Source: a virus (lineage: Duplodnaviria > Caudoviricetes). From it: a stretch of DNA of 30,971 nucleotides. The first letter of the stretch is position 1. Each line of letters opens with the position of its first letter. Of the stretch, positions 941 through 27,115 are shown piece by piece. The notes beneath the pieces are model-generated. The model saw only the letters and a program-made list of their open reading frames with translations, was not told where the DNA came from and did not search any database. The DNA lies in the IMG/VR virus record IMGVR_UViG_3300014508_000007, positions 1 through 30,971 of that record; one strand, written 5' to 3'. Made by a program: the position numbers and the translations under genes.

Positions 941-1039
941 CCCTGAATTAAAGAACTAAAGAAATAGATATGGGGTATAAAGTTTAATCACACAGTTGCT
1001 TGGATAAAGAAATTAACACTAATTAAATAAATAGAAATT

Positions 1040-1249
1040 ATGAAAGTAAAAGAATTTTACAAATGTTTACGAGAGATGAAAACATACACAAACGGACTGT
1101 ATAAGGTGTTTGGAGTAATTTATAAAGATTTCTTATATGGGATTGTTACACACTCTCCCACTAAAGTTTACAGAAAATATCAATTTTTAAAATCTAAAAA
1201 ATATCATTTACCTAGAGACTCAAAACCTCAATGGTATGTAAAACAATAG
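1040..1249 (+). CDS. hypothetical basic protein
   Basis: 69-aa ORF with AAATTATG start. Confidence 0.6.
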   Translation: MKVKEFYKCLREMKTYTNGLYKVFGVIYKDFLYGIVTHSPTKVYRKYQFLKSKKYHLPRDSKPQWYVKQ

Positions 1250-4045: not shown

Positions 4046-4254
4046 TATATATACTATTAAGTTTTTTAATTGGCTTGATGTATGCTATTTACGCTGGCTG
4101 TACTGTTATAATAACATTTATAAAAGGTGGTATGATAGGCGCTTTGTACAACAAAGAGCATTACGAGGGCGAAGATATAGAAGAACATACAATACAATTC
4201 TGTTTATTAATTATCACTATAACAATTATATGGGAAACAGAACACATTGGTTAA
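4042..4254 (+). CDS. small hydrophobic/membrane hypothetical protein
   Basis: Hydrophobic N- and C-terminal stretches; coupled to neighbours by overlaps. Confidence 0.6.
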   Translation: MIYILLSFLIGLMYAIYAGCTVIITFIKGGMIGALYNKEHYEGEDIEEHTIQFCLLIITITIIWETEHIG

Positions 4255-4769
4255 GCCTAATAGCTAAGCACCATAAAGAGTGGATAAACATTGCTAAAGT
4301 GTACAGCTGCGGAGGTTACGCAGAAGACGTAGTGCAAGAGATGTATTTAAAAATACATAAGTATTCTACTGCTGACAAAGTTATAACCAACGGAAAGGTA
4401 AACAAAGGGTACATATTCTTTGCACTTAGAAGCATTATAAATTCATATCATAAAGAAAAGTCTAAGGTAGTTAAATACGATATTGACTCTGTTAGACACC
4501 TATCTACTTGTGATAACCAAGACCAAATACAAGCATTTGAACGTGTGAGTGAAATGATAGACAAAGAGTCTGACGATTGGCATTGGTACGATAAACAAAT
4601 ATTTGACTTATACAGATACAATAAAACCTCTATAAGAAAGTTAGCCAAAGAAACCAACATAAGTTCTGTGAGCATATTTAATACACTAAAAAATTGTAAG
4701 GCAAAAATAAAAGAAAAATTTACAGAAGACTATCAAGATTATTTAAACGGAGATTATGACAGAATTTAA
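4230..4769 (+). CDS. ECF-type (sigma70 family) RNA polymerase sigma factor, probable late regulator
   Basis: Region-2-like AEDVVQEMYLKI and region-4 HTH SIRKLAKETNISSVSIFNTLKNCKAKIK; located just upstream of the morphogenesis genes. Confidence 0.8.
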   Translation: MGNRTHWLSLIAKHHKEWINIAKVYSCGGYAEDVVQEMYLKIHKYSTADKVITNGKVNKGYIFFALRSIINSYHKEKSKVVKYDIDSVRHLSTCDNQDQIQAFERVSEMIDKESDDWHWYDKQIFDLYRYNKTSIRKLAKETNISSVSIFNTLKNCKAKIKEKFTEDYQDYLNGDYDRI

Positions 4770-22811: not shown

Positions 22812-22990
22812 AGGCGGTAATAGATAAAATATTATCCCTTTACATATCTAAAAAATTAATAGTATTTTTGATAGCTACTGGATTGGTTATTTCAGCTAAA
22901 ATAAGCGGTGCTGAATGGATTAATATAGCTATTGTATATATTGGAACGCAAGGAGTGATAGATGCTATTGTAAAGCTACGTAAGAAATGA
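22808..22990 (+). CDS. putative holin/antiholin (2 TM)
   Basis: Two TM segments, directly before the endolysin. Confidence 0.6.
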   Translation: MKAVIDKILSLYISKKLIVFLIATGLVISAKISGAEWINIAIVYIGTQGVIDAIVKLRKK

Positions 22991-23340
22991 AGTATTTTAA
23001 TCAAATAGAGTTTGACAGTCCAGACGAGTTAGGAAGTGGAGCTAATATGGATGTTGAATTTACACACTTACTAGAACAAGCAAGAGTAGTTGCTGATATT
23101 CCTTTTAGGATTACAAGTGGTTATAGGACAGAATCATATAACAAGTCGGTTAATGGTAAAATAAATTCAAGCCATTTAAAAGGACTAGCGGTAGATATAC
23201 ATTGCGCAGATAGCAGAAGTAGAAGTATTATATTGAACGCTCTTATATCAGTAGGGTTTACTAGAATAGGTATTGGAAAGACTTTTATACACGCAGATAA
23301 TGACACAAGTAAGTCGCAAAATGTTTACTGGGTATATTAG
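22987..23340 (+). CDS. endolysin, peptidase M15 family
   Basis: ITSGYR, SSHLKGLAVDI, FIHAD Zn-peptidase motifs. Confidence 0.9.
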   Translation: MKYFNQIEFDSPDELGSGANMDVEFTHLLEQARVVADIPFRITSGYRTESYNKSVNGKINSSHLKGLAVDIHCADSRSRSIILNALISVGFTRIGIGKTFIHADNDTSKSQNVYWVY

Positions 23341-23376
23341 TTGATAACTTTTATTCTTTAATAGAAAAGAATTTTA

Positions 23377-23384
23377 TAGTTTTG
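23377..23384 (+). promoter_or_regulatory. Bacteroidota-type -7 promoter element (TAGTTTTG)
   Basis: Matches TAnnTTTG; no clear -33 TTG at canonical spacing. Confidence 0.45.
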
Positions 23385-23453
23385 AACCTCGAAGGTTAAA
23401 GTTTGTTTCATAATTTTAAATACCATTTCATTTATTTGAGGTGGTATTTTTTT
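23385..23453 (+). ncRNA. putative antisense small RNA
   Basis: Bounded by a -7 element and a terminator; 23403-23421 complementary to 24016-24035. Confidence 0.5.
23418..23453 (+). terminator. intrinsic terminator after lysis cassette
   Basis: 13-bp stem AAATACCATTTCA/TGAGGTGGTATTT (2 G-U) plus T run. Confidence 0.8.
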
Positions 23454-23464
23454 ATATAATAAAT

Positions 23465-23632
23465 ATGGATTACAATTTAGACGAATTAGAAATTATTATT
23501 TTTCATTGTTGCAATCATAAAGAACTATTTGAGGTTTGTAATGTGTTAGATGAAGTTAATTCTTACGATAAAAAAGAACTTGACCATATCCGTAAACTTG
23601 TTTTTCATAAACATATATCATTGTTAAGATAA
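23465..23632 (+). CDS. hypothetical protein
   Basis: MDYNLDELEIII...; ATG 23465 preferred over the GTG inside the terminator. Confidence 0.5.
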   Translation: MDYNLDELEIIIFHCCNHKELFEVCNVLDEVNSYDKKELDHIRKLVFHKHISLLR

Positions 23633-23795
23633 GCATTTTAAAGCATTATAATATACGCAGGTATATGTATATATCACTTTTACTTTAAAGTGTCTTAAAA
23701 CGCACAGAAACGTGCTTAAATTGTGTTTTTAAGTCTTTTATTGAGTAACTAATCTATAAATTGCTTAAAATTATACCTTTTTTATTTAAATAAAC

Positions 23796-23920
23796 AAAAT
23801 AAAGGAAAGGAAAGGAAAGCGCGTGTAAAGGGTTAGCATCCACAACCCAATGGATTTGCATTATACACCCAATAGCTACCTAATAGGTTGGCATAGGTTA
23901 CCCATAATCACACCTATAAA
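23796..23920. repeat. purine tract (AAAGG)n plus 11-bp periodic repeats, putative replication origin
   Basis: AAAGG x3 + AAAGC; ACCCAATGG/ACCCAATAG/ACCTAATAG/ACCCATAAT at 23845/23867/23878/23900. Confidence 0.5.
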
Positions 23921-23964
23921 AATCAATAATATTTTTAAATATTTTAGGTTTATTTGTACAAAAG

Positions 23965-23994
23965 TTGGTAGATTAAAAAAAAAGTTTATCTTTG
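23965..23994 (+). promoter_or_regulatory. Bacteroidota housekeeping-sigma early promoter 1
   Basis: TTG-N19-TATCTTTG; TTGTACAA palindromes just upstream and overlapping the 3' end. Confidence 0.8.
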
Positions 23995-24025
23995 TACAAG
24001 AATTATAAAACTTAAATTTAAAATT

Positions 24026-24115
24026 ATGGAAACAATTAAATTAAAAACAGGAATTATTTGCGTTCAGAAAATGCAAAAAAACGGAGTAGTAAGGGTAACT
24101 GTAAAAAACAAATAG
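24026..24115 (+). CDS. small early protein (29 aa)
   Basis: METIKLKTGIICVQKMQKNGVVRVTVKNK*; AAAATTATG start directly after the promoter. Confidence 0.55.
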   Translation: METIKLKTGIICVQKMQKNGVVRVTVKNK

Positions 24116-24117
24116 AT

Positions 24118-24249
24118 ATGACTTACGATGACTGGAAATTGGACAATCCGAATTATGATGAAACAGCAGATTGTGTTGTTTGTGGGGCAGAAATACATAC
24201 AGATGACATTTACTGTTCAAGCGCGTGTTATAAAGCAGATCAATTATGA
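24118..24249 (+). CDS. small Zn-ribbon-like protein
   Basis: CVVC...YCSSAC; ATG 24118 preferred. Confidence 0.65.
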   Translation: MTYDDWKLDNPNYDETADCVVCGAEIHTDDIYCSSACYKADQL

Positions 24250-24428
24250 GAAAAATAAACTACAAATCTGTTGAAATAGATGGAATAGACTCTAAAGATT
24301 ACCCAGACTTTTGCGATGCGTTTATATGCTACGCTGAATGGAGTGATGGAACAGAAATGACAGAGCAGGAAATTGAAGATAATTTCGATGATGATATTTA
24401 TGAATTTATAGAAAACAAAATATATTAA
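24246..24428 (+). CDS. small acidic hypothetical protein
   Basis: DGIDSKDYPDFCDAFI motif; very acidic. Confidence 0.7.
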   Translation: MRKINYKSVEIDGIDSKDYPDFCDAFICYAEWSDGTEMTEQEIEDNFDDDIYEFIENKIY

Positions 24429-24430
24429 TT

Positions 24431-24805
24431 ATGAACGTAGAAAAATTAAAGGAACTTTACAACAAGTATAATTTAACGAAAGACGATGTATTTAAGCACC
24501 AACATTATATTATTATAACGAGGTCTGGTATAGACAAAGTGCAAGGAATTGAAGGTATTAAAATCAATTACGAGGTTATAAAATGTGAGCCTAACTTTGC
24601 AGTTGTAAAAGCTAAAACACAACACTTGGAAACTTTTGGTAGCGCAATTAAAGGTGCTACTTTTAAAGACGGAAATACCAATTCTTGGTATGTTATGGAA
24701 ATGGCAGAAAAAAGAGCAATGAGTAGAATTGTTTTAAAGACTTGCGGTTTTTATGAATTAGGTGTATTTGGAGAAGATGAAAGCGAAGATTTTAAAAGAA
24801 AATAA
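24431..24805 (+). CDS. putative single-strand annealing/recombination-associated protein
   Basis: EMAEKRAMSR.VLK and GVFGEDE resemble annealase helix motifs; located near the SSB-like gene. Confidence 0.4.
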   Translation: MNVEKLKELYNKYNLTKDDVFKHQHYIIITRSGIDKVQGIEGIKINYEVIKCEPNFAVVKAKTQHLETFGSAIKGATFKDGNTNSWYVMEMAEKRAMSRIVLKTCGFYELGVFGEDESEDFKRK

Positions 24806-26662: not shown

Positions 26663-26693
26663 TTGTACAAGAAATAAATGTTGTGTAGTTTTG
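26663..26693 (+). promoter_or_regulatory. Bacteroidota housekeeping-sigma early promoter 2
   Basis: TTG-N20-TAGTTTTG; TTGTACAA overlaps the -33 element. Confidence 0.75.
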
Positions 26694-26735
26694 GGTATGC
26701 GTAAGAGATATGCATATAACCTAAAAACAAACATT

Positions 26736-26984
26736 ATGAAAACAATTACAAAATTACCAAACAGAATGAATCCTTACAAATCGTATCTAATTTTAAAGCC
26801 ATCAACAGGCGCAAGAGGGTATTTAGAATATTGCGAAGATATGGGGTATTGCCTAAAAGTGTCTTCTTCTTTTCATAATGAATTTAAAAATGAATTGCTA
26901 GTAAATAGCGAGAACTGCGTTTGGTCAAGCACTAAAGCGATAGCAGTAAAAAGAGCAAAAAAATTAGGATTTAACATTTCTTAA
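26736..26984 (+). CDS. hypothetical early protein
   Basis: MKTITKLPNRM...; ATG 26736 after promoter 2. Confidence 0.65.
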   Translation: MKTITKLPNRMNPYKSYLILKPSTGARGYLEYCEDMGYCLKVSSSFHNEFKNELLVNSENCVWSSTKAIAVKRAKKLGFNIS

Positions 26985-26989
26985 ACATT

Positions 26990-27115
26990 ATGAAAAACAC
27001 ATTTTTTAAACCAACAAACGAACCAACCCTGCACGAAAGTTTAGAGCAAACTTTCGATAGAATGACAAAAGATTGGAATGACTTTGTAGAATTTTTAAAC
27101 GACATAACAAAATGA
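26990..27115 (+). CDS. small hypothetical protein (41 aa)
   Basis: MKNTFFKPTNEPTL...; ATGA overlap with next gene. Confidence 0.55.
   Translation: MKNTFFKPTNEPTLHESLEQTFDRMTKDWNDFVEFLNDITK

Follow-up and report, generated by a model that had tools for sequence, protein, structure and literature searches.

A candidate FopS-like antisense small RNA downstream of the late genes of a marine flavobacterial-type phage

Introduction

Does the short stretch that follows the endolysin gene of a marine phage encode a small RNA directed against the start codons of the phage's own early genes, or is it a late-operon terminator whose U-rich sequence resembles such an antisense RNA by its composition? An earlier note on this DNA had favoured the first possibility, describing a ~65-nt RNA antisense to the start codons of the first genes of both early operons.

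The window, i.e., the whole stretch of DNA analysed here, is the 30,971-base virus record IMGVR_UViG_3300014508_000007, with a CheckV completeness of 99%. According to the annotation of its ORFs, the terminase, portal, tail and endolysin genes, as well as a block of SSB, NinB, NinG and replication genes, are found on the + strand only. Its closest cultured matches are phages of Flavobacterium, Cellulophaga and Tenacibaculum, with 60-90% identity over short stretches, and the sequencing runs containing the window are marine metagenomes; no RNA run is among those listed, which speaks neither for nor against expression. It is likely a marine phage with hosts among the flavobacteria. The labels "early", "middle" and "late" rest here on the order and annotation of the genes rather than on expression.

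Results

Genomic surroundings and anatomy of the unit

The unit sits between the endolysin gene and a consensus promoter (Table 1). Several other features were observed along the window. An ORF with a weak match to a sigma factor (4230-4769; phrog_1740, E 2.6e-7), located just ahead of the terminase block, is a candidate late-gene activator. About 330 nt of non-coding sequence ahead of promoter 1 (23633-23965) contain repeats of GGAAA along with several words resembling ACC(C/T)AAT, and could serve packaging or as an origin. A second start tag, A(A)TAGATATG or AAAGATATG, is found ahead of about nine mostly small middle ORFs (at 198, 515, ~971, ~1253, 1466, 2290, 24118, 30194 and 30672), and the word CATATCT occurs on the + strand in five places only, all of them within ORFs. 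In addition, a repeated leader, GGTGGTTACTAAA...ATAGATATG, precedes two unrelated genes (at 1444 and 30171), where it possibly marks a cassette or recombination junction.

Table 1. Features of the window discussed in the text; small RNA, promoters and target sites are predictions
Feature	Position	Strand	Remarks
Endolysin gene, final gene of the late block	22987..23340	+	phrog_894, E 1.5e-21; stop 36 nt before the -7 element
Minus-strand 17-codon ORF, MKQTLTFEVQNYKILFY	23358..23411	-	chance length
-7-like element, TAGTTTTG	23377..23384	+	outside the refined TAHHTTTG consensus; no -33 TTG
Hairpin AACC/GGTT, 4-5 bp	23385..23397	+	straddles the predicted start
Predicted ~65-nt small RNA	23389..23453	+	inferred; own weak promoter and/or 3' end of late transcript
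Anti-start seed	23403..23421	+	UGUUUCAU in loop of weak predicted stem
Intrinsic-terminator-like hairpin and U-run	23418..23453	+	also the first terminator downstream of the lysin gene
Early promoter 1 (predicted), full consensus TTG-19-TATCTTTG	23965..23994	+	from sequence
Main predicted target	24016..24035	+	leader and start codon of 29-aa ORF 24026-24115; spans A-3 and A-6
Putative promoter 2, TTG-20-TAGTTTTG	26663..26693	+	from sequence
Weak secondary site, start of ORF 26736	26733..26745	+	similar site at 26990
11-nt exact site, start of ORF 1040	1035..1045	+	from sequence

Of the anatomy proposed earlier, the terminator stood. Its stem (23418-49) comprises 13 pairs, 3 of them G-C, and the run of 7 T ends at 23453. 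The -7 element is present, but it carries G at position 3 and is thus off TAHHTTTG, the refined consensus of F. johnsoniae; a TTG is absent 17-21 nt upstream of it, and the looser form TAnnTTTG is found at about 70 places in the window. Transcription in F. johnsoniae starts 4-5 nt past the element (PMC6847099), and the same spacing is seen in the FopS copy of locus L212, a provirus record discussed below. Starts at this distance place the predicted beginning of the RNA at 23389-90, which cuts the AACC/GGTT hairpin, so that this structure probably lies outside the promoter-made RNA and was rejected as its 5' part. The seed had been regarded as single-stranded; however, folding predicts a weak AU/GU stem of 7 bp that has the seed core in its loop, and 4 of the 19 pairing bases fall within the base of the terminator stem. 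The window holds one such U-rich unit only.

Pairing with the early starts

The 19-bp complementarity between the seed and the main site, with one bulged G and merely 2 G-C pairs, is present as the earlier note described it, and it is the top Watson-Crick match in the genome, as the start region of ORF 24026 scores highest among 2447 genome windows (both strands). None of 300 dinucleotide-shuffled seeds equalled this score at any place on the + strand. Among 1209 start regions taken from other phages, 1-2 match the seed equally well. On 24026, the unit itself scores 16.5, and the highest score among 36 foreign units is 13.5. The comparison with shuffled controls turns out differently in co-folding with accessibility. 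There, the 24026 duplex reaches -11.3 kcal/mol and rank 4 of 56, 10 of 500 shuffled seeds bind 24026 equally well, and when each shuffled seed is given its best start out of the 56, the median energy is close to -11.8 kcal/mol. Once folding is counted, the modelled duplex is ordinary, and shuffled seeds equal it over the gene set. Variants of the seed or the target were absent among DNA contigs of 4 sequencing runs, compared over 22900-24800.

Since a strong site is found only at 24026, antisense action against both early operons was an overstatement. The shorter matches named earlier do exist, but the site behind promoter 2 is weak, as about 7% of start regions from other phages match equally well; for the one at ORF 1040, the corresponding share is about 3%. 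These remaining matches represent a short ATTATG(A) tag that is enriched in early genes, with ATTATG present in 8 of 20 early and 3 of 25 late starts. In the same two groups, early starts outscore late ones by Watson-Crick matching (8.3 vs 6.4, p 6e-4), a preference found in 0 of 1000 shuffles; by duplex energy, the preference has p 0.04, and the seven best-binding starts are all early. Foreign units too favour the window's early starts (mean 1.01, with 2 of 36 attaining the own value of 1.88), showing about half of the own unit's early-over-late preference, and much of the match is therefore generic.

Relatives of the unit in viral contigs and cellular genomes

Relatives were sought by the pattern TATATTTG-N2-25-TTTCATA-N25-55-T6, with a control in which CAT of the seed is changed to ACT. 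A terminator hairpin was found in 47 of 120 viral pattern matches (40 distinct) versus 3 of 120 with the control seed, and the estimated number of viral stretches is about 1800 for the pattern versus about 700 for the control. Six of 48 pattern units represent one real opposite-strand gene family; over all 48, the median opposite-strand ORF has 16 aa. A class of viral units composed of a predicted promoter, seed and terminator is well supported by these counts. Loci sharing the lysin or ORF 24431 contributed 79 short promoter-to-terminator units (57 distinct, in 146 sequences), mostly U-rich, a set that takes in structured leaders and chance matches. The end of a same-strand ORF lies no more than 50 nt from the unit start in 24 of 33 units. 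Several of the ORFs ahead of units look holin- or lysin-like by eye, and the units usually lie just ahead of small genes.

The same pattern in cellular genomes gave a terminator in 30 of 120 matches. By record title, 24 of these 30, and about 46 among all 120, belong to Bacteroidota, where the units span Bacteroidales, Flavobacteriales, Sphingobacteriales, Chitinophagales and Cytophagales.

Close homologues of the window unit were absent among the compared loci, where its best local score was 19, and base-pair covariation for this pair could therefore not be obtained. An exact 19-nt scan of viral contigs gave two matches, L142 and L143, and the former was rejected as a homologue because of its unrelated context. 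ORF 23465 has just 2 short matches, and no relatives of the 29-aa ORF were found among the compared loci.

Other recurring elements were seen alongside the units. One of them combines a strong promoter, a short 5' G/C word and a long terminator with a loop complementary to that word, and is likely an attenuator-type leader (L087:3941, L102:5431 and 6466, L084:7727, L080:5785, L088:5810; also in G002, G006, G008, G031 and G033). In Sphingobacteriaceae chromosomes (L468, L472, L474, L496, L532), a FopS-like unit is conserved in which a small 5' hairpin precedes GUUUUUCAUAG. In six viral loci (L153, L161, L175, L206, L223, L265), a conserved ~208-aa ORF begins with codons whose opposite strand shows a perfect -7 element, an anti-start seed and a terminator, which may be an overlapping small RNA or a false positive.

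Correspondence between units and their own phages

Units and promoter-proximal first genes were called by fixed rules on 39 contigs plus the window. At first, 39 of 44 contigs were taken, G041 was added later, and some contig ends were left out. Also left out were the 6-unit gene family (opposite-strand ORF of at least 109 aa), the near-duplicates G009 and G022, one nested promoter of G016, units with less than 40% U and contigs without a called promoter-proximal start. For the resulting 22 non-redundant units and 56 promoter-proximal starts, the own-phage residual was 1.20, versus 0.01±0.17 for permuted labels (p 3e-4), in a set where kinship was handled by near-duplicate removal only and whose contigs were partly picked after the initial duplex scan results. 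Shuffled RNAs gave 0.28±0.17 and the mirror control (complement-not-reversed) 0.41. The residual was 1.07 without the window and 1.10 for the 9 pattern-found units. The signal is located in positions -30 to -1 (1.04) and not in codons (0.14), it falls to 0.14-0.20 for other genes on the same contigs, and it amounts to 1.67 for starts within 1 kb and 0.93 for those more than 3 kb off. The best antisense match over the whole contig was a start region in 16 of 31 units, versus 1-8 of 31 over 8 shuffle rounds. In individual contigs, the seed of G027 mirrors AAACAATAACAA in two distant leaders, and that of G023 matches 13 nt ahead of an ATG.

Replication of the effect was weak. On 5 short loci it was not significant (0.44, p 0.18, mirror control 1.54). 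On new whole contigs, 13 units gave 0.79, and after removal of G050 and G054 (opposite-strand ORF of at least 45 aa), the remaining 11 gave 0.52 (p 0.03), below the mirror control of 0.89. Antisense and mirror versions won 5:5 in these 11 units and 17:4 in the first set; pooled, 33 units reach 1.01 versus 0.64 for the mirror and 0.24 for shuffles. A version using all ORF starts in ±5 kb loci gave p<0.05 for 6 of 55 (median p 0.30-0.37), with an ORF caller that missed 24026, and unconstrained duplex scans were noisy. Tuning of the seeds to their own phages is likely, but in part it is a shared low-complexity style.

Discussion

A possible early-to-late brake

We consider it an even chance (about 0.5) that the unit is a FopS-like small RNA directed against predicted early genes of its own phage, with ORF 24026 as the chief target. 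By pairing with the AUG and the A-rich leader ahead of it, such an RNA would likely block ribosome loading. It would come from transcription starting at 23389-90, from the 3' end of a late transcript that stops at the same terminator, or from both. The exposed UUUCAU could nucleate pairing, which would then extend over A-3 and A-6, positions that tune initiation in Shine-Dalgarno-less Bacteroidota (PMC6847099). Rising amounts of the RNA would then damp those early and replication genes whose starts carry ATTATG(A), which would make it an RNA-only early-to-late brake. The enrichment of the class, the own-phage preference and the early-over-late preference speak for a trans-acting repressor of early genes, as suggested before, but the replication is weak.

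The role in immunity that had also been suggested did not hold up. Neither a first set of 20 unit-bearing contigs, 11 of them records with a completeness of 90% or more, nor a second set of 15 gave a PF00589 tyrosine integrase. Among the window ORFs, PHROG and Pfam named neither a serine integrase nor plasmid-type prophage genes. As for the protein repressor, none had been recognised in the window before, and this agrees with the lack of an XRE HTH (PF01381) there; 3 of 20 unit-bearing contigs gave matches below the cut-off. With neither a tyrosine integrase nor an XRE repressor found, early shut-off is likelier than prophage immunity, which we rejected.

The same elements could be explained in other ways. 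An anti-start RNA could act mainly against mRNAs of the host, in host shut-down, or against early mRNAs made by competing phages, in superinfection exclusion. Its match to its own phage could then come from genes that use the strongest of the generic leaders of Bacteroidota. The generic target motif fits this, with equal or near-equal sites in the starts of other phages, and so do the units of the same design in Bacteroidota hosts, the cellular operon-first targets of FopS, and an exact 14-nt seed complement found 14 times in 5 Flavobacteriaceae genomes versus 3 times for a control, counted irrespective of starts. However, these exact 14-mers amount to just 0-4 per genome, and the confinement of the own-phage effect to promoter-proximal genes is not predicted by a host-style explanation, which makes this possibility somewhat unlikely. 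It is unlikely, too, that the stretch is only a late-operon terminator with a U-rich 3' UTR, its octamer a chance occurrence and its complementarity derived either from low-complexity, AT-rich sequence or from an early leader that was once copied in inverted orientation. The off-consensus octamer, one of about 70, the ordinary co-folding energy, a target only about 600 nt off and a mirror control that reaches the level of antisense among the replication units all agree with it; against it stand the 47 vs 3 terminator counts with CAT and ACT seeds, the 0 of 300 shuffles that reach the match, the persistence of the effect beyond 3 kb and the pooled residual of 33 units in comparison to shuffles.

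Quite improbable, in our view, is an RNA acting through a protein or in cis, either as a decoy that draws off an RNA-binding protein of the host, e.g., RbpB, or through a seed that silences 24026 only in read-through transcripts. FopS RNAs bind RbpB via their 5' part (PMC11697453), and the nearest starts give the strongest own-phage effect, yet seeds track their own leaders at distant sites too, and a strong terminator lies between seed and target. Finally, the motif could belong to a real minus-strand gene of 17 aa, as its leader and start. The reverse strand does read like a good Bacteroidota start, and opposite-strand ORFs of at least 45 aa begin at the CAT in 6 of the 48 units found by pattern and in 2 of the 13 used for replication. 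On the other hand, the annotated genes are all on the + strand, the 17 aa equal the class median for opposite-strand ORFs, and no minus-strand TAnnTTTG is present between the unit and 25398, i.e., within 1.9 kb upstream. We rejected this peptide as a chance-length ORF, the chance of it being a gene appearing very remote.

A broader scenario can be put forward, albeit tentatively, as possible rather than probable: FopS-like small RNAs encoded where the late operon ends could serve Bacteroidota phages widely as a switch made of RNA alone. The seed would be retuned in each lineage to the "address" of the early leaders and, by exploiting initiation that needs no Shine-Dalgarno sequence, would silence the early regulon as well as superinfecting relatives, with no protein repressor involved. 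The number of such units in IMG/VR would then run into the hundreds. A compact RNA against the A-rich leader and AUG would suit a phylum without Shine-Dalgarno initiation, the FopS design would be extended beyond gut Bacteroides, both to phages of aquatic habitats and to genomes throughout the Bacteroidota, and the unit would give a programmable knock-down scaffold for Bacteroidota. To our knowledge, early-gene shut-off in integrase-less and repressor-less flavobacterial phages is undescribed.

Comparison with known antisense RNAs

In phage P22, sar is encoded opposite its single target, ant, within the temperate immunity region. Our unit differs in that it lies on the strand of its target, about 600 nt upstream, and pairs with it partially (19 bp with a bulge), in a window without a recognised integrase or repressor. 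As a phage antisense RNA that blocks translation initiation, sar nevertheless is a precedent, and so is c4 of P1/P7, a trans-acting phage antisense RNA of similar size with its complementary bases in loops (PMC12197685 for both). In contrast to c4, the unit has a simple predicted seed-plus-terminator fold, and no antirepressor gene was recognised in the window. The earlier note cited these two RNAs, but FopS/GibS of Bacteroides is the closer analogue. The available text of that 2025 review of phage sRNAs, which covers sar and c4, contains neither "Bacteroid" nor "Flavobacter" (PMC12197685), and a literature search whose reach excluded most subscription journals returned no publication on this phage class.

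FopS sRNAs of Bacteroides (RF04319) repress translation by binding near the start codons of operon-first genes; one of them is derived from a 3' UTR, and one copy is noted in a Caudovirales phage (PMC11697453). Such a case is the true FopS copy at L212:6002-6069 (-), which scores 80.7 bits and adjoins two tRNA genes in a provirus record. The window unit, in turn, gave no match to RF04319 at gathering or E<=10, with the controls L212, L509 and L529 at 78-81 bits; the family was likewise found in 0 of 20 other unit-bearing viral loci, and a search of the window with Rfam, C4 included, returned nothing at either threshold. It lacks the rest of the FopS consensus, including the R1/R1' seed, sharing UUUCAUA and a U-rich flank only. 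It is also single-copy where FopS is multicopy, and it resides in a flavobacterial-type phage, with predicted targets among the phage's own early genes and a seed that varies by phage. The likeness lies in the layout, i.e., a Bacteroidota primary-sigma-type promoter, off-consensus in our unit, followed by a 5' seed stretch with UUUCAUA and an intrinsic terminator within about 65-70 nt, as well as in the predicted complementarity to operon-first start regions. Judged from its sequence, the unit resembles FopS in design but is not a member of RF04319, and its predicted class is widespread and, as a variant of a kind of small RNA already known, apparently unpublished.
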